From assembly GCA_035549295.1 (NCBI GenBank), contig DASZRG010000021.1:2596-66595 (forward strand): a DNA stretch of 64,000 nucleotides, in the 5' to 3' direction. Position numbers and translations under genes: made by a program. Positions 1 to 46,598 of this stretch are shown here, piece by piece; positions within the stretch are counted from its first letter, which is position 1, and every line of letters begins with the position of its first letter. The notes below the pieces were generated by a model. It did no database searches. It saw nothing but the letters and a program-made list of their open reading frames with translations, and was not told where the DNA came from. The DNA comes from Patescibacteria group bacterium (GTDB taxonomy: Bacteria > Patescibacteriota > Microgenomatia > Levybacterales > GWA1-39-11).

Positions 1-403
1 GCTCCGTATAGTTGAGTCTTTCTATGAATACATGAAGCAGATCTACCATATATTCGGGGTTTTTGTTGAGCGCTTCAAAGTAGTCTTTTTCAGAAATTGT
101 GACTATTTCGACATCCGTTATTGCCTCTGCTGTATGCTTGAGTTGTTTATCCTCATTTGTAAGTGCGCGCACGGCAAGGATACTGCCAGGGCCATATAGA
201 TAAATGATAGTGCTTCGTCCTTCGGGTGACATGCGGTACATTTTGACGAAACCTTTTTTAATAAAGTATATTTTCCGAGGTTCGTCCCCTTCGTAGAAGA
301 CCGTTTTGCCGCTTTTGACGAGGATTGGTTGTTTGCCACCGGAGTATTTTTTAAAAAAAGAAGTAAAATCCGGCGGCAGCCAAATTTTGTCAAGTCTGCT
401 CAT
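1..403 (-). CDS. Crp/Fnr-family cyclic-nucleotide-binding regulator (partial; runs off window start)
   Basis: Manual minus-strand translation from the ATG at 401-403 gives MSRLDKIWLPPDFTSFFKKYSGGKQPILVKSGKTVFYEGDEPRKIYFIKKGFVKMYRMSPEGRSTIIYLYGPGSILAV..., a typical cNMP-binding beta-roll. This frame differs from track ORF 118..393, and the gene is not listed because it is open at the window edge. Confidence 0.6.
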   Translation of the reverse strand, partial: MSRLDKIWLPPDFTSFFKKYSGGKQPILVKSGKTVFYEGDEPRKIYFIKKGFVKMYRMSPEGRSTIIYLYGPGSILAVRALTNEDKQLKHTAEAITDVEIVTISEKDYFEALNKNPEYMVDLLHVFIERLNYTE

Positions 404-469
404 GAAAAGGTCAGATATTGGTAGCATTATCGGCGATTATAACACAAAACGTATGTAGTCAAGATTACA

Positions 470-590
470 AAGCAAAAATAGATATTAGATACTAGAGATT
501 AGATATTAGTAATTGTTGACGGGATGTTAATTTTGAATTTGCGTGAATTCTAATGTCTAGTATCTAGTTTCTAGTATCTCTCTTGGGGTG
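470..590. repeat. Inverted heptamer-repeat element, family A (A[CT]TAGAT units; arms gatattagatactagagattagatattag / ctaatgtctagtatctagtttctagtatc around a ~45 bp spacer)
   Basis: Directly visible tandem 7-mers forming a long imperfect palindrome. The same family recurs at 13205, 18262/18645, 19322, 20040, 50400 and 54600. Confidence 0.8.
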
Positions 591-1757
591 GGATTGTTCA
601 GCATTCGTAAATGTATCATAATTGTAATTGTTGTCGTGAAATTAAGAAAGAAATTGTCATCATATTTTAATCCTCAAAATCTGAAAAGGATTTTCTACAT
701 TTTGATTATAGGTGTTCTTCTTTTTGTTATTTGGTATTTTTTTAACTTAAGTCAATCTGAAAAACAAGTAAAAAATTATGCAAAAAATATTTACAGCAGT
801 TGCCTTGGAAACAAGGATGTAGCGGAGTGCTATGACGACGCATTTTATTCATTTAACAAAAAGCACGTGTTCAGTCTTACTATAAAAGTTCTTGCGGCTT
901 TGCAGGATATAGATAAGAGGGCACTTGGATGTCATCAGATTTCTCACGAAATTGCAGAGGCAGAAGTTGCAAAAGATCCGGTCAATTGGGAAAGAGTTAT
1001 TAAGAAAATCGATTTCTATGCATGTAATGGTGGATATTTGCATGGAATTTTTGAAGGTCATGCACTCGCAGATCCAAAATTTGTAATAAATCACAATTCA
1101 GTCGCGGATTTATGTAGTCAATTTATAAAAGATCAATATCAGGTTAATAATTGCGTTCACGGGATGGGGCATCTCATGCTCGTGCAATATAAAGGAGATC
1201 TTAAATCTGCAGTTTCAGAATGCTCCAAGCTAAGTTCAGGTTGGCGTTATCATTGCTACAGTGGGATTTTTATGGAGAATATGGTGCGAGGATTTTTGGA
1301 GGATCATGGTATTGCAGCGCCATTTCCTTGGACGGCTCAAAATGCTCTCAAGCTTGAGCAAGCATGCAATTCGTTTTCTGGTCTCCCTCAAAGAGCATGC
1401 TGGACAATGATGTCAATAATATATGTATATTTGAATTATGATAATCCGCAAGCTGTTTATAACAACTGTCAAAAAGCACCTGCAGAGGATGATGCGGAAG
1501 ATTGTTACTTGTATGGAGTGGGGGAGATTGAAATTGTTTCAAATTATGACCGTCAGACTTTTCCTTCATTGTGTTTACTTTACAAGTCTGAAAGCACATT
1601 GGGGAAACGATGCATGTTATTTGCCGTTAATACTTTAATATATACTTCGTTCAAAAATATTAGTACGGTACTGAATATATGTTCGAATGTTCAAGATGAT
1701 GCTAAGAAAAATTGTTATCGTGATTTAGCATCAGCACTAATTGAACGTGTTTTTTAA
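588..1757 (+). CDS. Hypothetical Cys-rich membrane-anchored protein
   Basis: 389-aa ORF with an N-terminal hydrophobic segment and many Cys/His (HEIAEAE, HGMGHLM). No family recognised. The track start is a GTG inside the repeat; an internal TTG at 654 or 702 could be the true start. Confidence 0.45.
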   Translation: MGLFSIRKCIIIVIVVVKLRKKLSSYFNPQNLKRIFYILIIGVLLFVIWYFFNLSQSEKQVKNYAKNIYSSCLGNKDVAECYDDAFYSFNKKHVFSLTIKVLAALQDIDKRALGCHQISHEIAEAEVAKDPVNWERVIKKIDFYACNGGYLHGIFEGHALADPKFVINHNSVADLCSQFIKDQYQVNNCVHGMGHLMLVQYKGDLKSAVSECSKLSSGWRYHCYSGIFMENMVRGFLEDHGIAAPFPWTAQNALKLEQACNSFSGLPQRACWTMMSIIYVYLNYDNPQAVYNNCQKAPAEDDAEDCYLYGVGEIEIVSNYDRQTFPSLCLLYKSESTLGKRCMLFAVNTLIYTSFKNISTVLNICSNVQDDAKKNCYRDLASALIERVF

Positions 1758-1759
1758 GC

Positions 1760-3574
1760 TTATTTATATCTATCAGCTTGAAAGTTGAATAGTTTGGCAT
1801 ATATTCCTCTCTGTTTAATTAGTTTGTTGTGACTGCCTTCTTCGGCTATTTTTCCATTTTCAATTACATATATTTTGTCTGCATTGCGGACTGTTGAGAA
1901 GCGGTGAGATATGATGAGGACTGTCTTGTTGCGGCCCAATTTCTCGACCTTATCAAATATTTCCTTTTCTGCCTTTGCGTCAATTGATGCAGTCGGCTCA
2001 TCAAGCACAAGAACTGGTGCATCTCGCAGGAATGCACGAGCAAGGGCTACTTTTTGCCACTGTCCCACAGAAAGTTCAGCTCCTCCTTTGAAAGTCAGTC
2101 CGAGAACTTGATCATATCCGTGATCAAGTTTTTTGGCGATTTCATCTGTTCCCGAGAAGCGAGCAGCCTCTTGGATAGCCTCCAAATTTATCTCCTCGTA
2201 AATTTTGCCGAAGTGGATATTTTCAGAAAGAGTGTATTCGTATTTTATGAAGTCTTGAAAAATCACGCCAAGCATTTTGTACCAGGAAGCAAGATCGATT
2301 TCTTTTATATTGTGTCCGTTTATTAAAATTTCCCCACTTGTTACGTCATAAAAACGAGCCAGAAGTTTGATAAGCGTTGTTTTTCCTGCGCCATTTTCTC
2401 CAACAAATGCGACTTTTTCGCCAGGATTGATAGTAAGCGAAAAGTTTTTGAGAGTTGGCTTTTTGCTATTTGCGTAAATAAATGTAACGTCTCTAAATTC
2501 GATTTTTGGTGGATTTTTCGGGTCTATTTTTATTGGGTTTTTAATCTCTATTGTTTTATTTTCAAGATCGAGAACTCTGAAAATATCCCGAACGTATAGA
2601 CTTTGATCATAATTTCTGCTTACGTTTCCAAATAGGGCGCTAATCCCTCCTTGAAAGTTAAAAACAACAAATGTGTAATAGGAGAGGCTTCCGAGTGTAA
2701 TCTTGCTCATGATGGTTTGAAGTGCTATGTAACCTTCGATTGCTATGTAAAAAATTGATCCGAGAGAATTGAGAAGTAGTGATGTTCCAAGTCGTTTTTT
2801 TCCGACATCGAGATTTTTTTGGGCAAAATTTCTTTGTATATCTAAGATTTCATCCAAAAATTTGTTAGACGTTCCAAATATTCTCATCTCCTTAATCCCT
2901 TCTCTGTGTTGAATAAGCTCTGATAAGTACCAGAATTTCTTCCTAAGCGGTGAATTCTTAGACCAGATTTTCCATAGAATTTTTGAATAATAAAGTTGAT
3001 TTATGAATGCAGGAATTGCCGCGATTATTATAAATAATGCGAGTGGAGCGCTGAGAGTTGCAAGCGCGATAAAGGAGATGACTATTTGTATGATGCTTCC
3101 TATTGAGCTAAATATGGTCGCGTAGAGATTGAGCGGCATCCATACGTATCCTTCGCGAACTTTTTGAAGCATGTCTCGAAATTTATCGTTCTCAAAATAT
3201 TCAATATCAAGAGTTGTCAGCTTTGAGAGAACTACTTGATATAAATTAACGGGAATTTGTACCCAGGTAATAAGATCCATGTAAGTTTGAAGTGAAGACG
3301 CTAGATTGCCGGCAATTAGAGTTAGAAGACGAAGCGCGAGTAGAGTATAAAGGTGTGCAAAATTAAATGGCTTGCCAATTGAGTGGACGATAAGATCAAG
3401 AATGAGCGCATAGATATAAGCATTTATAAATGGTATTACTATCGGAATTGTTGTTGCTATGAGCTGACCAATAACAATTTTTTTGTCAAATTTCCAGATG
3501 AGTGCAAGGAGTCTCCTTGAGGTATAAATAGTCTCTCTCGTCTCAGCTAGTTTGTCCGCAAACATCTTTCTCAC
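1760..3574 (-). CDS. ABC transporter, fused permease/ATP-binding subunit (MsbA-like exporter)
   Basis: N-terminal 6-TM domain, Walker A GENGAGKTTL, signature LSVGQWQKVALARAF and Walker B VLVLDEPTASID. Confidence 0.85.
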   Translation of the reverse strand: MRKMFADKLAETRETIYTSRRLLALIWKFDKKIVIGQLIATTIPIVIPFINAYIYALILDLIVHSIGKPFNFAHLYTLLALRLLTLIAGNLASSLQTYMDLITWVQIPVNLYQVVLSKLTTLDIEYFENDKFRDMLQKVREGYVWMPLNLYATIFSSIGSIIQIVISFIALATLSAPLALFIIIAAIPAFINQLYYSKILWKIWSKNSPLRKKFWYLSELIQHREGIKEMRIFGTSNKFLDEILDIQRNFAQKNLDVGKKRLGTSLLLNSLGSIFYIAIEGYIALQTIMSKITLGSLSYYTFVVFNFQGGISALFGNVSRNYDQSLYVRDIFRVLDLENKTIEIKNPIKIDPKNPPKIEFRDVTFIYANSKKPTLKNFSLTINPGEKVAFVGENGAGKTTLIKLLARFYDVTSGEILINGHNIKEIDLASWYKMLGVIFQDFIKYEYTLSENIHFGKIYEEINLEAIQEAARFSGTDEIAKKLDHGYDQVLGLTFKGGAELSVGQWQKVALARAFLRDAPVLVLDEPTASIDAKAEKEIFDKVEKLGRNKTVLIISHRFSTVRNADKIYVIENGKIAEEGSHNKLIKQRGIYAKLFNFQADRYK

Positions 3575-3798
3575 AGAAACAATTATAACGAATACTGTCG
3601 AATGAATCCGAATTAGTTAGATTATGGGGTAGGAAATTGAACTAAGCGCCAAAAGCTAAAAGCCGAATGCAAAATTGGTGGTGTTCTTTGTTTTTTGTTA
3701 TACGCGGTTGCGTACGACCGAGCCTAATGCTCGAAGAAGGTAAGAACACCAGAAACCTTCTGTAGTTGCAGAAAAGCGTGCCGAGATGGCGATTTGAG

Positions 3799-4347
3799 CT
3801 ATGTAGCCGCTGTGCACTGGCCCATGCGAATGGTGCTGCCGTTTGGCGATTGACCAATCACAGATAGACCACCTAGACCGTTGTCACTTAACGACAGCGT
3901 GATATTCCCAACCGTGACGCTCGTCTTGTTGCTGTTGACGACAGCCTGAAGCTTGACCGGCGCGCCGTTAAAGAAGTAGAAAGCGGCCGTGGGGTCGCTA
4001 ATCGACTTGACGATCAAGATCCCAGTGGGCCCGGTTCCGTCGTCGGTTTTGCCTGGGGCAGCCCAGTGGCCGGTCCAGCCGCCAAGAAACTTGGCCTGGT
4101 CAGGGCTAATGCCATATCCAGCGGGTGTACCCGTGCTCATTTCGGGTGTGATAAGACCTTCCGAGATGAGCTCGTTGATCGGACCGCAGGTGTCGCTTGT
4201 GACACCGTCGGTCAAAACGTGGGCGCTCGACGTGAGCTGAATCGTCTGTGACTCGGCGTGCGCTGTGGGCGCCTGCTGAGAGATCATGGCGCCTGCAAAC
4301 AGCAAGGCTGTAATCACAAATAATCCTAAAAGAGTAGTACGAAACAT
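3799..4347 (-). CDS. Secreted small beta-rich protein, paralog family 'GxWxGxW' (lipocalin-like?), high-GC gene
   Basis: Signal peptide MFRTTLLGLFVITALLFAGAMISQQAPTAHA. ATG at 4347 is preceded by GGAGG. Motif KFLGGWTGHW is shared with ORFs 9722..10297 and 14405..14938. GC is clearly higher than in the neighbours. The track ORF extends upstream to 4398. Confidence 0.55.
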   Translation of the reverse strand: MFRTTLLGLFVITALLFAGAMISQQAPTAHAESQTIQLTSSAHVLTDGVTSDTCGPINELISEGLITPEMSTGTPAGYGISPDQAKFLGGWTGHWAAPGKTDDGTGPTGILIVKSISDPTAAFYFFNGAPVKLQAVVNSNKTSVTVGNITLSLSDNGLGGLSVIGQSPNGSTIRMGQCTAAT

Positions 4348-4645
4348 GGTTGCCTCCAATGCTAAATCGCCCGTGCGAGACCTACCGTTTGTGCTCAAAT
4401 CTGCCTTTCTGCTAATTTAAAATGTGCTGACTTATGGCGAAAAAGTACATGCTTGTCCATCGAATCGACGGACGCACTATCCCTCCGAAAGTCACATAAA
4501 GTGTAGCATATTTGAGGTGTCGTGTCAAATACTATAGGACCATAAATATAACAATTTTGAGGCTAATTGTAAGAAGAATATTGGACAAAAATTCTTAAGT
4601 ATTTGCGCTATTGTAATAGGCGGGATAGTGATCTAATATATTGAC

Positions 4646-5947
4646 GTGGCAACAACAAGCAGAAGAAGTTTTCTTGAAATTATTCTCTCTATTTTATTCG
4701 CCTTAGTGGTCTTGTATGTAGCGGTTTATACATTTTTCTATAAGGTAAATACATCGAAGAGTAGTAGTTTTGGCACGTCTCCTATAATTGACGCAAGCAG
4801 TGTATATAACGGTTATCTTTTGATATCTCCATACAACAGACTTCTTGCTCAAAAACCAGAATGGAAGGGGAGCGTCTATCTTCTTGATATGAATGGTAAG
4901 CCAGTACACACGTGGAGTACCAATATGCAAGTTTTGTATTCACTTCTTGAGCCAGATGGCAAACTGCTTTCCGTTGCTGAACAGGCACGATACTCAAAAC
5001 TTTATCCGCCAGGTGGCAATACCGGCACTATCCAAGAACGCGATTGGAATTCGAATATCACGTGGGAGTACAAAAATGATGCAATGCATCATGACATAGC
5101 ACCGCTTCCAAATGGTAATCTGGCAGTAGCACTGTGGGAGCCAACACCACCTGATATTGCCACTCAGGTTGAGGGTGGAGTGAAAGGCACCGAATTGCCT
5201 GGCGGGCTTATCTGGTCTGACAAAATTATTGAAATTAATCGAGACAAAAAAATTGTTTGGTCTTGGGATGCCTGGCAGCATCTAGATCCAACGATAGACG
5301 TAATAGGGCCAGTTCTTCCTCGGTATGCTTGGACCTATACAAATGGCCTCAAATATATGGCCAAAAATCCTATTGACGGAACGCCCGCATATCTTGTCAG
5401 TATGAGGTCGCTAAGTGAAGTTTTAATCGTTCGAAAGTCAGATGGCGAGATAATATGGCGTTCACCAAAAGATCTTTTTAATCTGCAGCATGACCCAACT
5501 TATCTTGATAATGGGGATATTATGGTTTTTGACAATGGTCTAGATCGTATCCCTGCGCCATTTGCTGTTTATGGCTCGCGAGCAATAGAGATAAATCCAA
5601 AGACAAGCAAAGTTGTTTGGACACTAGATGGTGGAGCAGGGGCAATTGATAAGGTTCGTCTTTTTGCCGCAATAGTTGGCGGGGCACAGAGACTGCCAAA
5701 TGGTAATACATTGATAACTGATGGTCCCAAGGGTCACATATTTGAAGTGACGCCCGGCGGAAAGTTAGTGTGGGATATGATAAGCCCGTACAACACAGAG
5801 CAAACTGGACTTTTCCCAAACAATTTTTTGTTTAAAGCCCGAATTTATGGAGAAAACGAGATAAAGTGGCCTGCGAAAATTGCCCCAGCATTTGATAGTG
5901 TTGCGTTTAATCTCCACAACCTTTTATCAAAGATTTACCCAAACTAA
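4646..5947 (+). CDS. Arylsulfotransferase (ASST)-like beta-propeller protein with Tat-like/TM N-terminus
   Basis: N-terminus TSRRSFLEIILSILFALVVL resembles a twin-arginine motif followed by a TM helix. Repeated blades of the form W-x-(hydrophobic)...NGN/DNG (WEYKNDAMHHDIAPLPNGNLAV, IVWSWDAWQHLD, IIWRSP...DNGDIMVFDNG, VVWTLDGG...PNGNTLITDG) fit the ASST/PQQ-like propeller pattern. GTG start. Confidence 0.45.
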   Translation: MATTSRRSFLEIILSILFALVVLYVAVYTFFYKVNTSKSSSFGTSPIIDASSVYNGYLLISPYNRLLAQKPEWKGSVYLLDMNGKPVHTWSTNMQVLYSLLEPDGKLLSVAEQARYSKLYPPGGNTGTIQERDWNSNITWEYKNDAMHHDIAPLPNGNLAVALWEPTPPDIATQVEGGVKGTELPGGLIWSDKIIEINRDKKIVWSWDAWQHLDPTIDVIGPVLPRYAWTYTNGLKYMAKNPIDGTPAYLVSMRSLSEVLIVRKSDGEIIWRSPKDLFNLQHDPTYLDNGDIMVFDNGLDRIPAPFAVYGSRAIEINPKTSKVVWTLDGGAGAIDKVRLFAAIVGGAQRLPNGNTLITDGPKGHIFEVTPGGKLVWDMISPYNTEQTGLFPNNFLFKARIYGENEIKWPAKIAPAFDSVAFNLHNLLSKIYPN

Positions 5948-6046
5948 TAGGATTCCAGTGAATCAGTAAAGCAGTCCAGCGGTTTAACAATAAAACAATA
6001 TTTCAATAAAGCAGTAAACAACCTTTGTTATTGCATTGTAATAAGG

Positions 6047-7345
6047 TTGTTTACATTTACTTTGCTTGATAATAATATAGACAGAATTATGACGGCGATG
6101 CAGATAGGCGAATTGATAGAAAATTTAGATCAGATAAAACTTGCACCTGAAATATATAAATACGATTCTTTTAACGATGAACCTCACTTTTACGGTTACA
6201 AGACGTACCTGGCACTTTCTAAAAAAATGACAGACGGCATTATGCAGCGCGGTATAGCTGGCGTGGGTACTTCTTTTCTCTCACCAGAAGATGCGCTTTC
6301 AAAGTCAATTTACGAGGCAATGGAGAGGCTTAATAATTTTACATATAAAAAAGCCGACCTAAAATATAGTTCATACGATAAAAATCAAGACAAATTCATA
6401 GACCCAGTTGCCTTTTTGTGTGATGTGAGCACTCGAGAGAAAAGACTAGGCTGGGTTGAAGGGGTAGAGTTGCTATCTGGAAAAAAGAAGTTTTTCCCCG
6501 CTCAGCTAACATATCTAAATTATACACTGCAAAAGAACGAGACATACCTTTCTTACCCTCATAACAGCAATGGCTCAGCAGGCGGCTCAACTCCCACGCA
6601 GGCAACTCTGCATGGCATCTATGAGCTAGTCGAGCGTGACTGTTTGATCACAGCATATTTGAATAAGATTTCGCTTCCAAGAGTTGATCTTGTATCTCTT
6701 CACGACAAGAAAATTGATGAAATTATGCTGCTTTGTCAAAAATACAGATTGGATTTTTTTGTGTTGGATATGACCAATGATTTAGGTATTCCATCATACA
6801 TTTCTTTCATGAATGACCATTTTGGTGGTCCGCCGATTGCCTTTGGGTGTAAGTCAAGTCTTCGTAGTCGAGATGCGATTTTTGGTGCAATTCTTGAGTC
6901 TCTCATGATAAGGATGTCTATAAAGCGCATGATTCGTGAGGGGACAATTTTTGGCGAACACGCCAAAAGTGGCGATTTGTTTGCCGATCGCGCGCGATAC
7001 TGGTTGTTTCCTGGAATGGCAAGTAAGCTTGATTTTTGGACGAAGAATTCAGGCTTTGCTAAAAGCCGCGATAATTTCAAAGGAAATCTGGATCATGAGC
7101 TTGAAGAAGTTGCCAGAAGACTCACAAGTCGCGGATTTAATATCTATGTTGTTGATTGCACAATCCCCGAATTTCGCAAATTAAATTTTTTTGTTCACAA
7201 AACTTTTATACCTGGTACTCAGACGCTTTACTTGCTTGAAAGTGAGAGGAGCTCGGCTATGGACTTAGGTCGCCTGAAGCAAGTTGCAAGCTTTTTTGGT
7301 AAAAAGTTTGTTAAGCCGAATAGTGTACCGCACCCCTTCTTATGA
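6047..7345 (+). CDS. YcaO-domain cyclodehydratase (TOMM/LAP 'D' protein)
   Basis: SNGSAGGSTPTQATLHGIYELVERD matches the YcaO signature (E. coli YcaO SNGLASGNT..AILHGL.EVIERD). ~430 aa and not fused to an E1-like C domain. Track start is TTG; ATG at 6086/6095 is a possible true start. Confidence 0.8.
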   Translation: MFTFTLLDNNIDRIMTAMQIGELIENLDQIKLAPEIYKYDSFNDEPHFYGYKTYLALSKKMTDGIMQRGIAGVGTSFLSPEDALSKSIYEAMERLNNFTYKKADLKYSSYDKNQDKFIDPVAFLCDVSTREKRLGWVEGVELLSGKKKFFPAQLTYLNYTLQKNETYLSYPHNSNGSAGGSTPTQATLHGIYELVERDCLITAYLNKISLPRVDLVSLHDKKIDEIMLLCQKYRLDFFVLDMTNDLGIPSYISFMNDHFGGPPIAFGCKSSLRSRDAIFGAILESLMIRMSIKRMIREGTIFGEHAKSGDLFADRARYWLFPGMASKLDFWTKNSGFAKSRDNFKGNLDHELEEVARRLTSRGFNIYVVDCTIPEFRKLNFFVHKTFIPGTQTLYLLESERSSAMDLGRLKQVASFFGKKFVKPNSVPHPFL

Positions 7346-8166
7346 AAAGTATCAAAAGTACCAAAGGTATCAAAGGTATCAAAAGTCGGCAGACGCTGAG
7401 ATTGGAGCAGATTTTGGGAAAGCCTATTTTTGAATTTCAAAAGTTTCATCAAATAACGAAAATTAAAAAACTCGGGCTACCAATAACAGTTAAATCTCTG
7501 GAAGAGGAGTCCAAGTATTATCCTGATGAGTGGAAAACTGTCTTTTTCAAAGGTTACTCACGATTTGAGGAGGTAAAATTACCAAAACCACAACTCAAGA
7601 ATTCAGTATCTTTAAAAAAAGTTTTGTTTGAACGACGTTCACGTCGCGAATTTTCAAAAAATCCATTATCCCGGAAGGATTTAAGTACGCTTTTTTATTA
7701 TAGTGTGGGAGTGAAGTCACCGGATTCAGGTCTGATAAGTAGATTCTATCCATCTGGGGGTGGACGGTTTCCTCTTGAAATATATTTTCTTCCTGTAAAT
7801 TCTGAATTACCGAAATTTTTTTATCACTATTATGTCAAAAATAATAGTCTTGAGAAAATGTTTGAGTTCAAAAAGCGCGATATGCAAAAGATAACTAACA
7901 TTGATTGGGTAAAAAATGCAGGAGGAATAATATTTATTACGGCAGTTTTTAATCGCACTACAATCAAATATGGTGAGCGTGGTTATCGACATGTTATGAC
8001 AGAAGTTGGCTTTGTTACGCAGAATTTCTGTCTCCTTGCATCGGCTCTCAACTTAGCTATTTGTCCGATAGGCGCATACGCAGATGACACTATTAACAAG
8101 TTTTTGGAACTTGACCCACTCTTGGAATCGGTTGTTGGAGTTTTAGTAGTTGGGAAAAATCGGTAG
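7342..8166 (+). CDS. SagB-type (nitroreductase-fold) azoline dehydrogenase (TOMM 'B' protein)
   Basis: RRSRREF motif and RFYPSGGGRFPLEIYF (SagB/McbC family R..PSxG..YP.E.Y). ATGA overlap with the YcaO stop. Confidence 0.8.
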   Translation: MKSIKSTKGIKGIKSRQTLRLEQILGKPIFEFQKFHQITKIKKLGLPITVKSLEEESKYYPDEWKTVFFKGYSRFEEVKLPKPQLKNSVSLKKVLFERRSRREFSKNPLSRKDLSTLFYYSVGVKSPDSGLISRFYPSGGGRFPLEIYFLPVNSELPKFFYHYYVKNNSLEKMFEFKKRDMQKITNIDWVKNAGGIIFITAVFNRTTIKYGERGYRHVMTEVGFVTQNFCLLASALNLAICPIGAYADDTINKFLELDPLLESVVGVLVVGKNR

Positions 8167-8207
8167 GATTTGACAGCTTGGTCGCAGGACTCTAAACTGT
8201 AATTGTA

Positions 8208-8708
8208 ATGGACAAGATTTTAAAAATTAGCATAGTGGTTTTGATCGCGTGTCTTGCGTTTGAAGTATATTATTTATATATCTATAAAACAGATAGCGGC
8301 ACTCGCTACGCTACACAGAAGCCTTCTATTAAAAAGCCCCAAAGTAATTCTGCGGTTAGTACGGGAATCACGAATTATATTGCAAGCTTCGATAAGAATA
8401 TTCTTAAAAAATCGGAAATATCAAATGAGATTGAGGGGAAAATCGCCAAGGTACTCGATGCTCCTGGTGTGATGAATCAATTCCAATATGAAAAGGGGCT
8501 GGCGATCGCGCGTTCCAATGGCCAGAGTGTAGTCAACTACTATTTTTTGAGAAAATCAGACATCCCTAAGCTGAAGGTGGTTCAGAATGGGCAAAATATT
8601 CAATTTTCAGATCTAAAAATAGGTGATACAATAAAAATCGAAGAAACAATGGATCTGCTTGCAGCACCAGGTAGTAATCGCGAGTCTGTTGAAATAGATA
8701 AATTATGA
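8208..8708 (+). CDS. N-terminally membrane-anchored hypothetical protein (cluster-associated)
   Basis: 166 aa with a single N-terminal TM helix. Its last 20 codons are part of the 410-bp duplicated unit that also contains precursor 1. Confidence 0.5.
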   Translation: MDKILKISIVVLIACLAFEVYYLYIYKTDSGTRYATQKPSIKKPQSNSAVSTGITNYIASFDKNILKKSEISNEIEGKIAKVLDAPGVMNQFQYEKGLAIARSNGQSVVNYYFLRKSDIPKLKVVQNGQNIQFSDLKIGDTIKIEETMDLLAAPGSNRESVEIDKL

Positions 8709-9034
8709 AGTACCAAAAACCAAAAATTATAAGTAAGAGAGTAAAGCTCAATATGTTTATATCCGATCGTTCCCGAAATTCACTTGCCTTCAATTTAGTT
8801 GGTCCAGTGTTTGCCCAAAGTACCGGAGGGGGCGGAGGAGTTGGTGGTGGCGGTGCGTCTTGTACCGGTGCAGCAGATAGTGGGTGCGGATTTTGTAATT
8901 GCGCTACCGCTTTTGGCTGTGGCGAGGGAGGTCAGGGAAGTGGCATTCATGGTGGTTGTGATGGCTCAGGCTGTGGGGGTGCTCCCACTTGTGATGGAAG
9001 TAATACTTGCGGTAGTGCGGGTGCACCTTCCTAA
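8705..9034 (+). CDS. RiPP precursor peptide 1 (microcin B17/LAP-like; 38-aa leader + Gly/Cys/Ser/Thr-rich core)
   Basis: MKYQKPKIISKRVKLNMFISDRSRNSLAFNLVGPVFAQ followed by STGGGGGVGGGGASCTGAADSGCGFCNCATAFGCGEGG...CGSAGAPS. 12 Cys in a Gly-rich core, adjacent to YcaO/SagB. Confidence 0.7.
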   Translation: MKYQKPKIISKRVKLNMFISDRSRNSLAFNLVGPVFAQSTGGGGGVGGGGASCTGAADSGCGFCNCATAFGCGEGGQGSGIHGGCDGSGCGGAPTCDGSNTCGSAGAPS

Positions 9035-9115
9035 ATTTACTCATAGCGTACTCGTTTCCATGGATCTGCTTGCAGCACCAGGTAGTAATCGCGAGTCTGT
9101 CGAGATAGATAAATT

Positions 9116-9454
9116 ATGAAGTATCAAAAACCAAAAATTATAAGTAAGAGAGTAAAGCTGAATATGTTCATATCCGATCGCTCACGCGACTCACTTGCCT
9201 TCAATTTAGTTGGTCCAGTATTTGCGCAGAGTGCTGGCGGCGGCGGTGGTGGAGGCGGCGGAACCACTGGATCTTGCACCGGGGCTGCTGCTGGTGGGTG
9301 CGGATTTTGTAATTGTGCAACTGCCTTTGGTTGCGGACCAGGAGGCTCAGGAAGTGGTGTTCACGGTGGTTGTCAGGGATCAACCTGTGGTGGTGCCCCC
9401 ACTTGTGATGGAAGTACTACTTGCGGTACATGTTTGGGCGGTCCCGGAAGCTAA
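9116..9454 (+). CDS. RiPP precursor peptide 2 (tandem paralog of precursor 1)
   Basis: Near-identical leader and a diverged Gly/Cys-rich core (13 Cys), part of a 410-bp tandem duplication. Confidence 0.7.
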   Translation: MKYQKPKIISKRVKLNMFISDRSRDSLAFNLVGPVFAQSAGGGGGGGGGTTGSCTGAAAGGCGFCNCATAFGCGPGGSGSGVHGGCQGSTCGGAPTCDGSTTCGTCLGGPGS

Positions 9455-9721
9455 TTTGCTTTCTAAATTCGCGATTTGAGATCATTATCTCCCGATCTTT
9501 TTTTTGCAAGACTTCGAGGCTAAATAGCCTCAATATTCATCTTATAGTAATTGACTTCTATTGCATCTGGGTGTATAATTAGGGGGGCTGATTTTCAGCC
9601 AACTGGTTAAGCAAATCTTTAAAGGCGGACTATCAGAGCACTTTAAATTACTGATCGAAGGAAAGGGTTTCTAGGGCAATTAACTGGCGGGTTTACATAA
9701 TCGTACCTAGGGGGTATTTTC

Positions 9722-10297
9722 GTGAAAAAAATCTTTGTTGTATTTCTGGCAGGCGTCGCAGTTCTGGCCGTTGGCGTTGGAGCAGCTGTTGCATTCAACT
9801 CGAAGTCGAGTGAATACGTCGCAGTCTGCGATCAGATTCCCAACATGATGGTCAACCTGGATCCGGACGGCGTGGTGAAGCCACTCCAGAAGGACATTGC
9901 GTTCGTTCCGGCTCCTGCAAACGCGGGTAAGCTTGCCAAGTTCCTCGGACCCTGGCAGGGTAGCTACGGCACGGACCTTACTCCGGACGCAAACGTTGTC
10001 TCAGCCGTCATAGTGACATCAGTCACTTCGGATACGGTCAACGTCACTGACGTTTTCGGAACCGTGGTTCACACGCAACAGTTTTCTCTTGACGACGGAA
10101 AGCTGGTCTTTACGAACAATCTCCTAGGAGGGATTGTCCAGACGAAGACCCTGAGTCTTTCCCCTGATGGGAAAACAATATCGGAGACTTGGGATACCAA
10201 GTATCCGAACGGAGTTAAGTCCAAGGAGGGTGCGTTTCATCTGACAGCAGCTCGCTGCAAGATGCCCGCCCTTACCTCGGACCACACGGACCAATAA
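9722..10297 (+). CDS. Secreted small beta-rich protein, GxWxGxW paralog (high-GC gene with SD)
   Basis: GTG start preceded by AGGGGG. Signal peptide MKKIFVVFLAGVAVLAVGVGAAVA. Motif KFLGPWQGSY. GC ~55% versus ~38% in the flanks. Confidence 0.6.
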   Translation: MKKIFVVFLAGVAVLAVGVGAAVAFNSKSSEYVAVCDQIPNMMVNLDPDGVVKPLQKDIAFVPAPANAGKLAKFLGPWQGSYGTDLTPDANVVSAVIVTSVTSDTVNVTDVFGTVVHTQQFSLDDGKLVFTNNLLGGIVQTKTLSLSPDGKTISETWDTKYPNGVKSKEGAFHLTAARCKMPALTSDHTDQ

Positions 10298-10317
10298 CCA
10301 AACAACCTTCGATCATT

Positions 10318-10405
10318 TCGGGTGCGGCGATACGCTGTTGTGCTGCTTTATGCAGTTTTGTCGAAAGACACACAACAACGCCGCCGCACCCATTCCTTTT
10401 TAATT
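10318..10405 (+). terminator. Rho-independent terminator (long GC stem gggtgcggcg...cgccgccgcaccc + T-run)
   Basis: cgggtgcggcgatacgctgttgtg...cacaacaacgccgccgcaccc followed by attcctttttaatt, immediately downstream of 9722..10297. Confidence 0.55.
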
Positions 10406-10436
10406 ACCTCTAAAAATTAATGGTAGAATAGCCATT

Positions 10437-11729
10437 ATGGATTACACTAGAATCTCCGTTCACAAGTCTTTTGGGCAGAGTATGATGCCGCTTTTACACG
10501 ATGGGGATATAGTTCATCTAAAGAAAAAAGATTTCTCAAAGATTTCAATTAACGATATTATTTGTGTGAGAATGACACGAGGAATTCGGACTGCTTCTGG
10601 ACCTCATCCCAACCTTCTCCTACAAGGAGAAGGGGAGTTCTTCACTCACAGAGTCATTTATAAAACTCAAAAATACATTATAACTCGCGGTGACAACAAT
10701 CTATTATCTGATGGTAAAATTTATCCAAAAAATATAATAGGGACTGTTAATAAAATACAAAGAGAATCGAATATTTTTGATATAAATGATTTATATTTGA
10801 TGCAATCGACGCTCTATTTCAGAGAAATAGTAAAGGTGAAAAAAGCACTCGAAAAAGAGAAAATTGACTATGTTATTCTAAAAGGACTTCCTATTCACTT
10901 GTTTTACGAAGGAGAACACCCGAAGAGACTATACGCGGACTGCGACCTACTCATTTCAAAAAGCAAATATCAAAAAGCAAAAAAGATATTAAATGATTTG
11001 GGTTATTTGGAATACGATACTTCTTATTCGGTGGTTCAAAAAAAGCTAAAAAAAGGCGAGACGGAAGTGTCTTTCTTTAAGAATATTAATGGGGCAGTAG
11101 TTACCTTTGATATTCATCTTGAAGCTGTTTTTTTAATGACTCAGATTTCAAATACAAATGCGCTATATCCAAGGCGGTTAGTAGATAAGTTTTCGGAGAT
11201 GCTTATTGGGGATGTTAGGAGTGTTAGGATATTTGAAGAAAGAGTGAATATATTGTCGGCTGAATATTTGTTTGTTTACCTTTGTCTCCATCTGTATCAC
11301 CACAATTTTCAGGGGACATATCGGTATGATTTGATAGTAAAAATCATAAAAATAGAAAAACTTGATTATAAAAAAATAGCCTCGATTATCAACGAATTTA
11401 AACTCAATAATCTTGTTTATCCCGTTCTATTATTGTTTATTAAATATTATGATGTTAAATTTGATAAAGCCTTCCTTAGCTCCATAAAACCATCAAGCGA
11501 AATTATGTCAATTTTCAAAGGTCATGCGTCAAATGTTAATATTTTCAATAACGAGAGCAGAGTTGCATCAGGCATAACTCGCTTCAGAATGCTCTTTCAG
11601 ATCTCACCGAATAGGTTGAGACGCTATGGTATATTTATAAATCCGCAAGTCATTTTTTTTGTGATTTGGATAACAGTAAATAGGTTGGGATTGCTTCGTC
11701 GTCCCGCTTCGCGGGACTTCTCGCAATGA
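10437..11729 (+). CDS. Fusion protein: N-terminal S24/S26-like serine peptidase domain + nucleotidyltransferase-family (PF14907-like) domain
   Basis: N-terminus SMMPLLHDGDIVHLKK...ITRGDNNLLSDG resembles signal peptidase I/LexA-type peptidases. Middle segment IDYVILKGLPIHLFYEGEHPKRLYADCDLLISKSKYQKAKKILNDLGY fits the uncharacterised nucleotidyltransferase family often found next to PqqD/HprK-related genes. Confidence 0.5.
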   Translation: MDYTRISVHKSFGQSMMPLLHDGDIVHLKKKDFSKISINDIICVRMTRGIRTASGPHPNLLLQGEGEFFTHRVIYKTQKYIITRGDNNLLSDGKIYPKNIIGTVNKIQRESNIFDINDLYLMQSTLYFREIVKVKKALEKEKIDYVILKGLPIHLFYEGEHPKRLYADCDLLISKSKYQKAKKILNDLGYLEYDTSYSVVQKKLKKGETEVSFFKNINGAVVTFDIHLEAVFLMTQISNTNALYPRRLVDKFSEMLIGDVRSVRIFEERVNILSAEYLFVYLCLHLYHHNFQGTYRYDLIVKIIKIEKLDYKKIASIINEFKLNNLVYPVLLLFIKYYDVKFDKAFLSSIKPSSEIMSIFKGHASNVNIFNNESRVASGITRFRMLFQISPNRLRRYGIFINPQVIFFVIWITVNRLGLLRRPASRDFSQ

Positions 11730-11752
11730 CATATCTCTTGTATACTAAATAA

Positions 11753-13207
11753 GTGAAGAATAGTTTAATTATTTTTAATTCTCTCCTTCTTTTAGTAGTA
11801 CTATTTTTTGGATTTAAGGTTTTCAATCTTCATTCAGAGAAACATCTAAATGTTATTTTAATTTCTATAGATGCGCTTCGCGCTGATGAGATGAGTCTTT
11901 ATGGATATTCCAAAAAGACAACTCCCAATATAGATAATTGGGCGCAAAATGCGTCTGTTTTCACAAATGTTCGAACTGTTGTCCCTATGACTCAGCCGTC
12001 TTTTAGCGCACTTTTCACTGGTATTGAACCATTCAATACAGGCATTATCTCCAATGGCTCTCCCTTTATAGATTTCAATACTCCAACTCTAATGACTGTT
12101 TTAGCAAATCACGGTTATACAACTACCGCCTTTACAGCAAATTTTGCTGGGCTCAAAAATCAATTTCAAAACTTTAATTACTATGCGTATAAGGATCATT
12201 ACAACGATGAGGCTGGAGTAGAGAGATACATCATGGATGCTTCTCAGGGTAGCACGAAGATGATTCGAGATGCTGCTGGGTGGCTTAATAGAAATTCGTC
12301 TAAGCAGTTTTTTATGTGGCTGCACTTAATGGATGTTCATGCGCCTTATTACCCTGCTGATAAATACAGATGCGAATTTGATACAAAGTATTGTCCAGAG
12401 CTTTTGGGGAAACGCTTGGATCAAATCGATGCCGATCGAGCGCAATATCAGATGTGTCAGGAAAAACCTGTGCCTCAGGATAGAATCGACGAGATGAGAA
12501 CAGTCTATGATGGTGGAGTAGCGCAGGCTGATGACTATGTGGGACAAATTCTTGCCAAGATAAAGAGTCTCGGTCTCGATAAAAACTCAATAATAGTTCT
12601 TTATGCGGATCATGGAGAGGGACTCGATCACGATTATCTTTTCAACCACCGCGCGGTTCTTTATGACTCAGCCGTTCATATTCCGCTAGTTATCTATGAT
12701 CCCTTGGTAAGCTCATATAATAAAAGATCTGATATGGTGATCGAAAATACTGATATCATGCCAACCATTCTGAGTTTAGTTGGAATTTCGAGTTCAGGCC
12801 TTAATATTGATGGTCATAGCTTTGCGAATATAATAGATGGTGACTTAGTTCCGAATCTTAATTATCAGCCTCGAAAATACGTTTATTCTGTAAATTCCAA
12901 CTGGACAAAGTTTTCAATTTTTGATGGAAGATATAAATATATTTATTCTTTGCCAGAGTCATGCGTTGATCACGGCCAAACAGAGGAGTTGTATGACACA
13001 AGACAAGACCCAAAGGAGTTAAAGAATTTAGTTAAATCAAATTCGCAAAAAACCAAAGATCTTAAGAAACAGCTTTTCTATTACCTTTCGAAGTACAATT
13101 TGCCAGCGAGTGGTACATTACCTGCCGAGATGCAGGATGGAGATGATGCTGGCAGCAATGCGCAGGACCAGAAGCTACAGGACGAGATAAGGTCAATGGG
13201 GTATTAA
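11753..13207 (+). CDS. Sulfatase/alkaline-phosphatase superfamily membrane protein (LTA-synthase/sulfatase-like)
   Basis: N-terminal TM then ILISIDALRADEMSLYGY (metal/nucleophile motif of AP-superfamily sulfatases), later LYADHGEGLDHD. Confidence 0.65.
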   Translation: MKNSLIIFNSLLLLVVLFFGFKVFNLHSEKHLNVILISIDALRADEMSLYGYSKKTTPNIDNWAQNASVFTNVRTVVPMTQPSFSALFTGIEPFNTGIISNGSPFIDFNTPTLMTVLANHGYTTTAFTANFAGLKNQFQNFNYYAYKDHYNDEAGVERYIMDASQGSTKMIRDAAGWLNRNSSKQFFMWLHLMDVHAPYYPADKYRCEFDTKYCPELLGKRLDQIDADRAQYQMCQEKPVPQDRIDEMRTVYDGGVAQADDYVGQILAKIKSLGLDKNSIIVLYADHGEGLDHDYLFNHRAVLYDSAVHIPLVIYDPLVSSYNKRSDMVIENTDIMPTILSLVGISSSGLNIDGHSFANIIDGDLVPNLNYQPRKYVYSVNSNWTKFSIFDGRYKYIYSLPESCVDHGQTEELYDTRQDPKELKNLVKSNSQKTKDLKKQLFYYLSKYNLPASGTLPAEMQDGDDAGSNAQDQKLQDEIRSMGY

Positions 13208-13320
13208 TAACTAGTAACTAGAGATTAGATACTAGATATTAGGAAACTCGCACAAATAGGACATCGTGACCAGATGGTACTCTAAATTTCTATTTACTAA
13301 TATCTAGTTTCTAGTATCTA
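13205..13320. repeat. Inverted heptamer-repeat element, family A
   Basis: ctagtaactagagattagatactagatattag ... ctaatatctagtttctagtatctagtc around a ~55 bp spacer, between convergent genes. Confidence 0.8.
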
Positions 13321-13575
13321 GTCTATAATGCCTTTCGACTTTAGGTCTTTTAGGAATTCGGAGAGGTCGGAGTGCGCTTCTTTTTCCGAAATTTTGTACT
13401 TCTCAACGAGGTTTTTTAGTATTTCGTGCTCTTCTTGGCCATGTTTTAGTTGATTAAAGATAAACGTCGCTGTGTCATTGAATGTATGAAATACCGATTT
13501 TTCGCTATCAAAAATCTTGAGTTTTTGGCCTAATTTATCGCTAATTATTCCCTTTTTAATCTTGTGTTTTGCCAT
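13318..13575 (-). CDS. PqqD-family protein (RiPP recognition element, RRE)
   Basis: 85 aa. KIFDSEKSVFHTFNDTATFIFNQLKHGQEEHEILKNLVEKYKISEKEAHSDLSEFLKDLKSKGII fits the PqqD/RRE fold pattern. Confidence 0.7.
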   Translation of the reverse strand: MAKHKIKKGIISDKLGQKLKIFDSEKSVFHTFNDTATFIFNQLKHGQEEHEILKNLVEKYKISEKEAHSDLSEFLKDLKSKGIID

Positions 13576-14342
13576 TTTGTTGTAATTGCCTTGAATGATT
13601 CTACTATTATAGATTTGTCTTTGGGAAAGTACAACGAGTTAACATTTCTAAATGTGTCGGATAAGGCTAATAGATTTTTTACAATTTCCGAATCAGTGAT
13701 GGTCAGTTGCTTGAGAAGTTTTCCAAACGTATCTTCCTTGTTTGACTTTTTCTCAAGTCTAAATTGTTTTGATTTGTGAATAAAATAAATTCCTTTAAGT
13801 TTATATCGCTTGTTGGATTTATAAATTCGATTTTTTTCAACAAATGGGTGTTGATAAAGAAAATACTCTCTGTCGATTCGTCTTACTATCGAAGTATCAT
13901 CTGATAGAGCAGTGAAGTCCTGAGATAATAGTTCGGCAATCGTTGATTTGCCAGCGCCAGATGGTCCCGTAAACAAATAAGCATCATTTTTGTATGCGAC
14001 CGCCGAGGAGTGGATTATCATACCGTTATGTGCGGAGCATAGTAAATAGATCACATTCTCAAGTATTATTTTATAGGTTAAATAGTCTTGATAGTAGACA
14101 GTAACTTTATTTTTTAACTTCTTATCAAATGCAAGAAGCAGTCTTTTGTCTGATGCAACATTATATGGTTGATCCTCAAATTCTATATAAAAATCACACG
14201 TCCCCGTATTGCGTCTTACGATGAACTCACTGACGTAATTTGAAAAATCTACTTTGTATTGTTTGTATAGATCTTTTTGACGAGAATTTTTGAATGTTGC
14301 TTTTATTATGAAGTCTGCGATTTTTATGTAAATAAATTCCAT
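13545..14342 (-). CDS. HPr kinase-related P-loop kinase (HprK-rel family)
   Basis: FTGPSGAGKSTIAELL Walker A followed by LSDDTSIV, as in the HprK C-terminal-like fold. 31-bp overlap with the pqqD-like start suggests coupling. Confidence 0.6.
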   Translation of the reverse strand: MEFIYIKIADFIIKATFKNSRQKDLYKQYKVDFSNYVSEFIVRRNTGTCDFYIEFEDQPYNVASDKRLLLAFDKKLKNKVTVYYQDYLTYKIILENVIYLLCSAHNGMIIHSSAVAYKNDAYLFTGPSGAGKSTIAELLSQDFTALSDDTSIVRRIDREYFLYQHPFVEKNRIYKSNKRYKLKGIYFIHKSKQFRLEKKSNKEDTFGKLLKQLTITDSEIVKNLLALSDTFRNVNSLYFPKDKSIIVESFKAITTKWQNTRLKRE

Positions 14343-14404
14343 AGGGAAATATTAACATAACGCTCATTCTTGACAAGTAGAGGTTTATTTTTCTAACATA
14401 GGCT

Positions 14405-14938
14405 ATGGAGTCTCCTAAGCCAAAATCGTCACTTCTGACAGCGCTAGGAATTGAAGTAGTTGTAATAGTGGTTTTAACAATTCTTATAGTCAGTGCACTT
14501 AATTATTTCAACGTAATTTCGCTTCCACAAGCATCAATATTGCCGCACGAGAATGCAAATAAGGCTCCAGCTGTAACTGCTATCAATCAGTGTGCTCCTC
14601 TTCCGAAAGGAGCTGTTACAAAAGTTATTTCGCCAACATCAAGTGTTTCTGCGGCACTAGCAGCCTATTCTGGTACATGGAAAGGGTCATGGAATCCTCA
14701 ATATAGATCTGTTCTAATTATTCGTGATATAACTCCTAAGTACGCAACTGTTGGCTATTTTGTAAACGGAGTACGAGTTTTAGCAGCAATGCAGTTTTCA
14801 ATAGACGAGAGTAATAGGCTTATTGCGCCTAACAATCTCATGACTTATGAGATGAAGCAAGACGGAATCCACGGATCTATACTTTATAGATCTGGTGCTG
14901 TTGCCTCAACTGTTGTAATGACCCGCTGCACGCCGTAG
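14405..14938 (+). CDS. Membrane-anchored/secreted small protein, GxWxGxW paralog
   Basis: N-terminal TM and motif YSGTWKGSW. Shares downstream beta-strand pattern with 3799..4347 and 9722..10297. Confidence 0.5.
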   Translation: MESPKPKSSLLTALGIEVVVIVVLTILIVSALNYFNVISLPQASILPHENANKAPAVTAINQCAPLPKGAVTKVISPTSSVSAALAAYSGTWKGSWNPQYRSVLIIRDITPKYATVGYFVNGVRVLAAMQFSIDESNRLIAPNNLMTYEMKQDGIHGSILYRSGAVASTVVMTRCTP

Positions 14939-15007
14939 GGTATTCAGTAGCGAGTTAAAGTGTTAACGGGTTTTGCGAGTTAACTAGTTTTGTATTCTCA
15001 TTATTCC

Positions 15008-18690: not shown

Positions 18691-18697
18691 CTCTGTG
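18683..18697 (+). promoter_or_regulatory. Possible -10 box (TATAAT) 6 nt upstream of the pth GTG: candidate leaderless transcript
   Basis: gttataatatctctGTG, with no SD sequence. Confidence 0.3.
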
Positions 18698-19321: not shown

Positions 19322-19400
19322 ATACTAGTGACTAGATACTAGATATTAGTTGTTTAAGATGTGTATTTGCTAGTAGCTAGTATCTAATATCTAGTTTCTA
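19322..19400. repeat. Inverted heptamer-repeat element, family A
   Basis: gatactagtgactagatactagatattag ... ctagtatctaatatctagtttctaactag. Confidence 0.8.
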
Positions 19401-19401
19401 A

Positions 19402-46147: not shown

Positions 46148-46598
46148 ATTATTCGGAAAACTCAGAAAACTCAGAAAGTCAGATTTATCAGACTTTCATA
46201 TCTTCTGAGTACTCTAAAACCGACAAGATTGCTCTTACAAGCTTTAGGGTTGGTATACAGCGGTGTTAGTCTCATGAGTGAGAGGCTTGTCGAATCGACA
46301 AACTTAACTCAAAAATGAGAAACACCTGACAGGCACTTAATCGTAATCGATCACTCTTGTTCCACAGCGAATGTGGCGTAGAATGATGAAAACTCATAAG
46401 TTTTCTGCAATAGACAAATTTGCCTAACCAACCCCAATCAGTCATTACGTGACTAGCGTCCAATTAATGGCCCTACCTTGTATGGCTGACAAATGTCAGA
46501 CATAGCCTATGTGCAAGCAATTTCAGCTTCAAGGTCATAGGTTTGAAGTACGTCCCCGCGACGTGTTGGTTATGTAAAGTAGCTCTGAACGGCGCTCC

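Follow-up and report, generated by a model that had tools for sequence, protein, structure and literature searches.

Introduction

How might an azole-containing peptide be made by a pathway in which the YcaO cyclodehydratase is not accompanied by an E1-like partner protein, and which proteins would then take the partner's place? We address this question on a 64,000-nucleotide stretch of a Patescibacteria genome (positions 2,596 to 66,595 of contig DASZRG010000021.1, assembly GCA_035549295.1; hereafter the window). The Patescibacteria, or Candidate Phyla Radiation (CPR), are regarded as symbionts of minimal metabolism that have very few pathways for natural products. Based on the letters of the sequence, it had been proposed (hereafter the original prediction) that the first 15 kb of the window holds a locus for peptides synthesized on the ribosome and modified post-translationally (RiPPs) of the linear azol(in)e type. 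It was said to combine a YcaO protein, a SagB-type dehydrogenase and two Gly/Cys-rich precursors with a PqqD-like protein, a kinase related to HPr kinase (HprK) and a nucleotidyltransferase, and to be devoid of the E1-like C protein. Our analysis by profile searches, structure prediction and comparison of related loci indicates that this is very probably a genuine azole-type RiPP cluster. On balance we favour, with some reserve, the view that it encodes a linear azol(in)e peptide pathway as a whole, in which the PqqD-like protein would provide the leader binding of the C protein, the kinase and nucleotidyltransferase would tailor the peptide, an S26 peptidase would cleave off the leader, and an ATP-binding cassette (ABC) transporter would export the product. 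The assignment to linear peptides with azol(in)e rings is supported on all three counts on which it could have failed: hidden Markov models (HMMs) match the two enzymes, the precursor reading frames persist in relatives, and the genes found with them do not belong to an unrelated neighbourhood.

The YcaO-SagB pair and the related loci

The genes on which the argument rests are the following (window coordinates, strand, description):

6047..7345, +, stand-alone YcaO cyclodehydratase (D protein)
7342..8166, +, SagB-type flavin mononucleotide (FMN) dehydrogenase
8208..8708, +, single-pass membrane protein of 166 residues, no family match
8705..9034, +, precursor A1: 39-residue leader ending in VFAQS, 70-residue Gly/Cys/Ser/Thr-rich core, C-terminal Ser
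9116..9454, +, precursor A2: leader of A1 with one substitution, 73-residue core, C-terminal Ser
10437..11729, +, S26B (Sec11/SipW-type) Ser/His peptidase domain (residues ~10-108) fused to an NTP_transf_5 nucleotidyltransferase domain (residues ~120-335)
13318..13575, -, discrete PqqD-like RiPP recognition element (RRE)
13545..14342, -, P-loop kinase of the HprK/PEPCK fold, probably ScmC family

Both enzymes of the first pair were correctly identified in the original prediction. The product of 6047-7345 matches PF02624 (E=2.5e-52; 178.6 bits against a cutoff of 25.7), and that of 7342-8166 matches TIGR03605 (128.3 bits against a cutoff of 78.4) and the Nitroreductase domain (E=1.3e-21). The YcaO gene probably starts at the ATG at 6089. 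The residues of its ATP/Mg motifs (E90, E93, R94, E193, E196 and R197) and its C-terminal PHPFL are invariant. In a sequence search of the PDB its nearest entries are MusD, TruD and LynD, with McbD a distant match of the YcaO profile (E=7.7e-5). An AlphaFold2 model of moderate confidence (predicted local distance difference test, pLDDT, 72.8) aligns over its full length with stand-alone YcaOs and with the YcaO domains of LynD and MusD, and no RRE, E1 or additional recognition domain is seen in it. A recognition element hidden in the N-terminus was considered and rejected, as the one helix and three strands that the same model (pLDDT 72.8) places there fit the plain YcaO fold. Judged by sequence and model together, the YcaO is closest to the azoline-forming heterocyclases. 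The SagB start overlaps the YcaO stop in the window, an arrangement that recurs in every locus, and the SagB-type enzyme would oxidise the azolines to azoles.

Related loci, cited below by number, were gathered from the contexts of YcaO relatives, from GTDB genomes, from JGI metagenomes and by way of homologs of the kinase. L001 (CAZMXU010000036.1 of GCA_964570355.1) carries the window sequence itself, a window coordinate being the L001 coordinate minus 3912. Close relatives of the YcaO are few in a collection of 5.8e9 proteins and share 35-44% identity with it; a genome scan with the YcaO as a single-protein query gave no matches, and the scan repeated with a YcaO alignment as the query did. 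One related locus, L011, lies in a Patescibacteria metagenome-assembled genome (MAG). The MAG of L008/L010 (CAZYWG010000011.1) is titled 'uncultured Gammaproteobacteria bacterium', yet its cluster and flanks are of the Patescibacteria type and the label may be wrong; L007 shares a pur/dinB neighbourhood that resembles that of L008/L010.

Precursor peptides with a conserved leader

The two precursor genes lie in tandem. The 70-residue core of A1 has 27 Gly and 9 Cys and the 73-residue core of A2 has 30 Gly and 10 Cys. Hence the two Gly/Cys-rich peptides of the original prediction are real genes with homologs that share a conserved leader, but its figures need correction: the leader has 39 rather than 38 residues, Gly amounts to 39-41% of the core rather than more than 50%, and the Cys residues number 9 and 10 rather than 12-13. 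The leader (HMM match of A1 at E=1e-20) follows the pattern Y-x-K-P-x-[IVL]-x3-K-[IV]-K...F...[DN]-S...[VIL]-[FY]-A-[QA]-S, after which come hypervariable Cys/Ser/Gly-rich cores, and this family is present in 12 loci, the relatives being those in L003, L004, L006, L007, L008, L011, L053, L055, L061, L063 and L064. Between A1 and A2 the leaders differ in 10 codons, 9 synonymously and 1 non-synonymously, and the duplication unit, 411-414 bp long, begins within the upstream gene, whose last ~56 nt are part of it. Because of these predominantly synonymous differences, the structure of the duplication unit and the conservation of the leader in relatives, the Gly/Cys frame is taken to be the correct one, and on this sequence evidence both precursors are genuine genes.

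Public gene calls have taken Val-rich shadow frames opposite the Gly-rich genes, at window positions 8844-9119 and 9246-9479 (L001 12756-13031 and 13158-13391). For that reason, and not for want of relatives, a word-indexed search of the 5.8e9 proteins with the Gly/Cys-frame precursor retrieved no homologs. Clusters whose precursors are missed by annotation in this way look 'precursor-less' in databases. Immediately upstream, the stop of the 166-residue membrane protein gene overlaps the A1 start (ATGA), and in L003, L006, L055 and L061 a homolog of this protein is likewise encoded right in front of the precursor gene and in overlap with it.

Two precursors of the family have additional domains. 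The one at L004 13317-13952 (+) has the family leader and a core into which a pretoxin HINT/intein-like domain (PT-HINT, E=1.2e-17) is inserted that begins with CFLAGT and ends with VHN, followed by K rather than by C, S or T; a self-cleaving domain within a RiPP core is unusual. The other, at L064 12054-12575 (-), carries right after its Cys-rich core a C-terminal Peptidase_S74 (endosialidase chaperone) self-cleaving domain (E=3.6e-15), which suggests autoproteolytic release of the C-terminus of the core.

Loss of the E1-like partner

The next-nearest YcaO/SagB loci are the outgroups L014, L016, L022 and L027, from Acidobacteria, WOR-3 and KSB1. In each of them the gene directly upstream of YcaO encodes an E1-like protein annotated as a 'TOMM precursor leader peptide-binding protein' (TOMM, thiazole/oxazole-modified microcin); three of the four score 50-57 bits with TIGR03882 (cutoff 36.9), and TIGR03603 matches too. 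A profile made from the four outgroup proteins picks up the C proteins of a dozen outgroup loci. Searched with it at E<=10, neither the 64-kb window as a whole nor any of 22 clade loci gives a match, and the locus listings contain no ThiF-type Pfam domain. As the outgroups have a C protein whereas the clade loci and the window are without one, the E1-like partner has been lost within the clade, and the original prediction was right that the C protein is missing.

A module of PqqD, kinase and nucleotidyltransferase

The product of 13318-13575 is indeed PqqD-like (PF05402, E=9e-14), and its best NCBIfam match is the lasso-type PqqD (E=3.4e-10). Its gene shares 31 nt with the 3' end of the kinase gene (window 13545-13575), and a PqqD gene is paired with a kinase gene in most loci. 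By fold comparison the kinase has the HprK/PEPCK fold, together with a Walker A motif and an acidic metal-binding pair. Its residues D148/D149 are the counterparts of D158/D159 of PsmK, which are required for phosphorylation (PMC6993621), and both the Walker A and the DD motifs are fully conserved. Precomputed annotation assigns PF27840 (ScmC) to the identical protein and to all homologs; the ScmC equivalog model TIGR04249 gives 27.6 bits against a cutoff of 125. A search of PDB sequences with the kinase profile yields mostly generic P-loop matches, HprK/P itself appearing only at E=0.011. The original prediction had likened these genes to a co-occurring triad annotated in TIGRFAMs. This triad, HPr-rel-A, is a relative but not the family, given that its kinase model TIGR04352 (25.9 bits against a cutoff of 200) and its PqqD model TIGR04353 (28.2 bits against a cutoff of 35) stay below threshold and ScmC is probably closer. 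A literature search for ScmC returned unrelated acronyms only, and a search for YcaO in conjunction with HPr kinase, nucleotidyltransferase and PqqD found no paper that joins them.

The fusion protein at 10437-11729 combines the nucleotidyltransferase (NTP_transf_5, E=1.8e-21; G150 and D168xD170 conserved) with a peptidase, as had been foreseen; the peptidase is of the S26B (Sec11/SipW) type and not a LexA-like S24 domain. Its N-terminal ~100 residues match the archaeal/endoplasmic reticulum-type signal peptidase I (TIGR02228, E=1.5e-9; 37.9 bits, under the cutoff of 51.85), SEC11A matches the S26 domain in a PDB search (E=1e-3), and the catalytic motifs around Ser (FGxSMxP), His (THR) and Asp (GDNN..SD) are kept in 7 of 7 fusion proteins read from stop to stop. 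No hydrophobic segment, such as anchors S26B signal peptidases in the membrane, precedes the S26 domain in the window protein, and we read this domain as cytoplasmic. It is the proposed leader peptidase, and the nucleotidyltransferase domain the proposed tailoring enzyme. An exhaustive search of 1.84e9 representative proteins yielded 204 representative clusters for the fusion at E<=1e-30, nearly all of them full-length at 380-455 residues. The S26 domain of the window protein also has, at residues ~53-73 between the Ser and His motifs, an insertion of ~18 residues (MTRGIRTASGPHPNLLLQGEG) that is absent from 6 of 6 aligned homologs.

These genes travel with the YcaO clade. The HprK-like gene accompanies it in 17 loci, and PqqD and the S26-nucleotidyltransferase fusion accompany YcaO and kinase wherever the contig is long enough, L011 being too short for judgement. 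Loci without a kinase are either short fragments or L069 and L070, whose YcaOs are the two most divergent ones (25-26% identity). In L059, L064, L068 and L072 the kinase gene is directly upstream of YcaO or overlaps it, and in L007 and L008, which are compact, the cluster consists essentially of YcaO, SagB, precursor, nucleotidyltransferase, PqqD and kinase, with an ABC exporter in L008. The co-conservation that the original prediction had named as a check is thus found in all sufficiently long related loci. More distant kinases of the ScmC family also adjoin PqqD, in this case alongside radical SAM/SPASM enzymes and without YcaO (L056 and L057, the latter with NTP_transf_5 as well). From this distribution the triad is best described as a portable RiPP accessory module.

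Two kinase copies are present in L055, L067 and L068. The first of these is an expanded cluster (L055 3221-18293) with two ScmC-type kinases, NTP_transf_5, a QueC-PqqD fusion, YcaO/SagB, PqqD, three radical SAM enzymes (two with a B12-binding domain) and a trypsin-like protease; its precursors are short and Cys-rich and have the same leader type as the window family.

Proposed pathway and its alternatives

The pathway that we favour would run as follows. Translation of the two tandem precursors would be coupled to that of the 166-residue membrane protein through the ATGA overlap. The discrete PqqD-like element would bind the leader and thereby take over the role of the E1-like C protein. The stand-alone YcaO would use ATP to cyclodehydrate Cys, and possibly Ser and Thr, to azolines, which SagB would convert to azoles, as membership in these families implies. 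The HprK/PEPCK-fold kinase, translationally coupled to PqqD, may phosphorylate Ser/Thr hydroxyls of the precursor by analogy with PadeK and PsmK, and the NTP_transf_5 domain may then elaborate the phosphate, by analogy with PsmN and with the phosphorylated and glycosylated lasso peptides. The cytoplasmic Sec11/SipW-type domain would cut the leader off after the conserved A-x-S, a site proposed because A-x-S fits the -3/-1 rule of signal peptidases. An MsbA-like ABC pump without a C39 domain would export the product. Speculatively, an ASST-like propeller, an alkaline-phosphatase-family enzyme with a Thr nucleophile and small secreted paralogs may serve extracellular processing or immunity.

Several points weigh against parts of this pathway. 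To our knowledge, the characterised azoline-forming YcaOs, that of bottromycin excepted, require an E1-like or Ocin-ThiF partner, so that PqqD alone would be a putative partner at most. The YcaO scores 164.9 bits with the SagD-family model TIGR03604, under the curated cutoff of 219.25. S26 peptidases usually work outside the membrane, and the RiPP review that was searched documents none as a leader peptidase. The characterised kinases of lasso peptide clusters act on a C-terminal Ser, yet only ~3 of 12 precursor types of this family end in Ser. Finally, PsmN, whose own chemistry is unsettled (PMC6993621), is a putative member of PF14907 at most. We regard the phosphorylation and elaboration step as somewhat less likely than not, a tentative proposal by analogy, because the C-terminal Ser is not conserved in relatives and because of the state of knowledge on PsmN. 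A C-terminal Ser as the general target of the kinase, as in paeninodin, was considered and rejected, since the precursors of most relatives end otherwise.

The most serious competitor to a tailoring kinase is a role of the HprK-fold protein, jointly with PqqD, as an obligate partner of YcaO in place of the C protein, delivering the substrate and activating cyclodehydration, perhaps by phosphoryl transfer. The kinase co-occurs universally with YcaO in the 17 loci, its position in the four loci where it directly precedes or overlaps YcaO is that of the E1-like gene in the four outgroups, and E1-like genes are wholly absent from the clade. Yet the ScmC-PqqD pair also occurs with radical SAM/SPASM enzymes where there is no YcaO, in lasso clusters the HprK homologs have been proven to act as tailoring kinases (PMC6993621, PMC8498205), some loci have two kinase copies, and the full conservation of the Walker A and DD motifs points to real catalysis and not to scaffolding. 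We therefore consider such a partner role rather unlikely, and its stricter form, in which a module of PqqD and HprK/PEPCK-fold protein has replaced the E1-like partner and phosphoryl transfer is mechanistically coupled to heterocyclisation instead of decorating the peptide, we take to be slightly less likely still. If it were true, this module would be a YcaO partner system of a third type, unrelated to the others.

Two further alternatives concern the reaction of the YcaO and the unity of the locus. That the enzyme performs thioamidation, amidine formation or ATP-dependent peptide cleavage, and that the product is no azole peptide, might be argued from its score below the SagD-family cutoff, from the absence of the canonical partner and from its top PDB match, MusD, whose entry is titled for YcaO-mediated ATP-dependent peptidase activity. 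But in every locus YcaO is overlapped by a SagB-type dehydrogenase, an enzyme that is meaningful only once azolines have formed, TfuA is absent from all locus listings, the cores are rich in Cys, Ser and Thr, and the proline-rich C-terminus of the YcaO does not vary; we regard this as very unlikely. It is more improbable still that PqqD, the HprK-like gene and the nucleotidyltransferase form an independent neighbourhood that merely lies beside YcaO/SagB. In the window the triad is 4-6 kb from YcaO and partly on the opposite strand, and triads of the same type are found elsewhere without YcaO, but its retention with YcaO/SagB across related loci of sufficient length contradicts this: the YcaOs of these loci share only 27-45% identity, their flanks differ, and in the minimal loci the triad is contiguous with YcaO.

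Comparison with known systems

With microcin B17 (McbABCD), streptolysin S (SagABCD) and phazolicin the cluster has in common a YcaO, a SagB-type dehydrogenase just downstream, a precursor with a leader and a Gly/Cys/Ser-rich core, and an ABC exporter. It differs from them in having neither an E1-like (McbB/SagC) nor an Ocin-ThiF partner, in a YcaO that stays under the SagD-family cutoff, and in the conservation of a discrete PqqD, an HprK-fold kinase and an S26-nucleotidyltransferase fusion instead. The description of the precursors as 'microcin-B17-like' in the original prediction is justified for composition and predicted chemistry, but the likeness ends there: the precursors show no similarity to McbA, McbD is a remote relative of the YcaO, and no McbB-type partner is present. 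The cluster probably works like a TOMM system without being a standard member of that class, from which it departs in the C protein and in the SagD-family score.

The cluster was also predicted to be an unusual hybrid in a CPR-like genome, which holds for its combination of kinase, PqqD and nucleotidyltransferase; azole-peptide clusters as such had already been described from CPR genomes. Sharrar et al. 2020 (PMC7298704) reported 110 azole-peptide clusters in 93 CPR genomes, with a YcaO, a nitroreductase, a 'peptidase' and an 84-residue precursor. Given the same lineage, a YcaO with an adjacent nitroreductase, a 'peptidase' and a precursor, these are very likely of the same cluster family as the one in the window. 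That account has three modification enzymes only and does not mention the kinase, PqqD, the nucleotidyltransferase domain, the leader family or the absence of a C protein. With ~200 clusters of S26-nucleotidyltransferase fusions the family is widespread in CPR, and it may be one of the main chemical tools of these bacteria in their interactions with hosts or competitors. It also offers a natural experiment on a YcaO cyclodehydratase working without an E1-like partner.

The HprK homologs of lasso peptide clusters phosphorylate the C-terminal Ser of the linear precursor, and the addition of hexose to the phosphate needs a neighbouring uncharacterised nucleotidyltransferase that in some cases forms a fusion with the B2 leader peptidase (PMC6993621, PMC8498205). 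Systems such as those of paeninodin (PadeK) and pseudomycoidin (PsmK/PsmN) share with the window an HprK-family kinase with a DD metal site, a PqqD (the window PqqD having B1-type best matches), a nucleotidyltransferase and an ABC exporter. The B2-nucleotidyltransferase fusions (PMC8498205) are a direct parallel to the fusion in the window, in which the peptidase is of the S26B type. Unlike in lasso precursors, the C-terminal Ser is not conserved in the window family, and Pfam and NCBIfam scans of the window reading frames or locus listings detect neither an Asn-synthetase-like lasso cyclase nor a B2 transglutaminase-type peptidase. The module of kinase, nucleotidyltransferase and PqqD known from lasso peptides would thus be portable between RiPP classes. 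The SynChlorMet (ScmC/ScmD) and HPr-rel-A (TIGR04352/TIGR04353) cassettes have likewise a gene for an HprK-related P-loop protein beside a PqqD-family gene, but they centre on radical SAM/SPASM enzymes or other partners, and their equivalog models remain far under their cutoffs in the window.

Accessory genes and flanking regions

The remaining features around the cluster are these:

2..427, -, Crp/Fnr-type regulator, N-terminal cNMP-binding part, gene cut by the window start; NCBIfam NtcA/CRP E=9e-10
588..1757, +, Cys-rich membrane-anchored protein of 389 residues, accessory; no Pfam or NCBIfam family
1760..3574, -, MsbA/HlyB-like ABC exporter, fused permease and ATPase without a C39 peptidase domain; ABC_tran E=2.9e-33, ABC_membrane, MsbA-type NCBIfam
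3799..4398, -, small membrane-anchored secreted protein, first of three paralogs; no family match
4646..5947, +, ASST-like beta-propeller with an N-terminal membrane anchor, accessory; Arylsulfotran_2 E=1e-17, Arylsulfotrans E=1.7e-15
9722..10297, +, second small paralog; no family match, matches a homolog in L004
11753..13207, +, alkaline-phosphatase-superfamily ('sulfatase' Pfam) enzyme with an N-terminal anchor, accessory; PF00884 E=1.9e-53
14405..14938, +, third small paralog, adjoining the kinase gene; homologs at the same position in L004, L006, L007, L008 and L053
15008..16201, -, Wzy_C (O-antigen ligase-like) membrane protein; Wzy_C E=9.5e-19

HMM scans bear out the ABC exporter, the ASST-like protein, the sulfatase-family enzyme and the Crp-type regulator of the original prediction. 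The complete regulator gene in L001 encodes cNMP_binding and HTH_Crp_2 domains, and a Crp-type regulator adjoins the ABC gene in L006 and L053 too. The ABC exporter is also found in L003, L004, L006, L008, L053 and L059, and homologs of the 389-residue Cys-rich protein flank YcaO in L003 (two copies) and L063.

The ASST-like gene recurs in L003, L006 and L058 and the 'sulfatase'-family gene in L003, L006 and L011; since each is present in a minority of loci only, both are considered accessory. The latter enzyme has the Pfam Sulfatase fold, as predicted, but lacks the formylglycine motif C/S-x-P-x-R: the aligned position reads T-Q-P-S-F, without the Arg, and PMT[QWYD]PSF, with the Thr conserved, replaces the motif in 4 of 4 homologs. 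More probably it works extracellularly, as a hydrolase or transferase of phospho-esters, and its action on a phosphorylated product would be speculation.

The three small paralogs, membrane-anchored or lipoprotein-like, share a G-x-W-x-G-x-[WY] motif and a C-terminal Cys. Their family occurs in nearly all related loci, with one copy by the kinase gene, and in L006 as a tandem two-domain version. They are candidate immunity, binding or accessory proteins, their membership of the cluster being uncertain. It is equally uncertain whether Wzy_C is part of the cluster; its gene is adjacent in most loci (L004, L006, L007 and L008 among them) and lies within a neighbouring glycan locus in L053. Some related clusters (L003 at 13072-14559 and 17993-19747, L004 at 10289-11998) encode large polytopic membrane proteins that include a DCC1-like thiol-disulfide oxidoreductase domain, and none is present in the window.

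An Rfam scan of the window detected no RNA family, and a promoter and terminator scan gave counts no higher than in shuffled controls, which are uninformative on operon structure. Farther into the window, positions 46000-50000 and 52000-54000 are islands of 53-58% GC against 37-44% for the genome, and with the negative Rfam result they are not rRNA. They encode secreted Pro/Gly/Ala-rich proteins without Pfam families and a Flp-pilin-like protein (52166-52696), and may represent foreign DNA or surface proteins of odd composition. The gene at 18284-18640 (-) matches PF05635, the '23S rRNA intervening sequence protein' family (E=2e-35), in a window that contains no rRNA, and the one at 51491-51856 (+), judged by its sequence alone, resembles a second copy of this type of gene.

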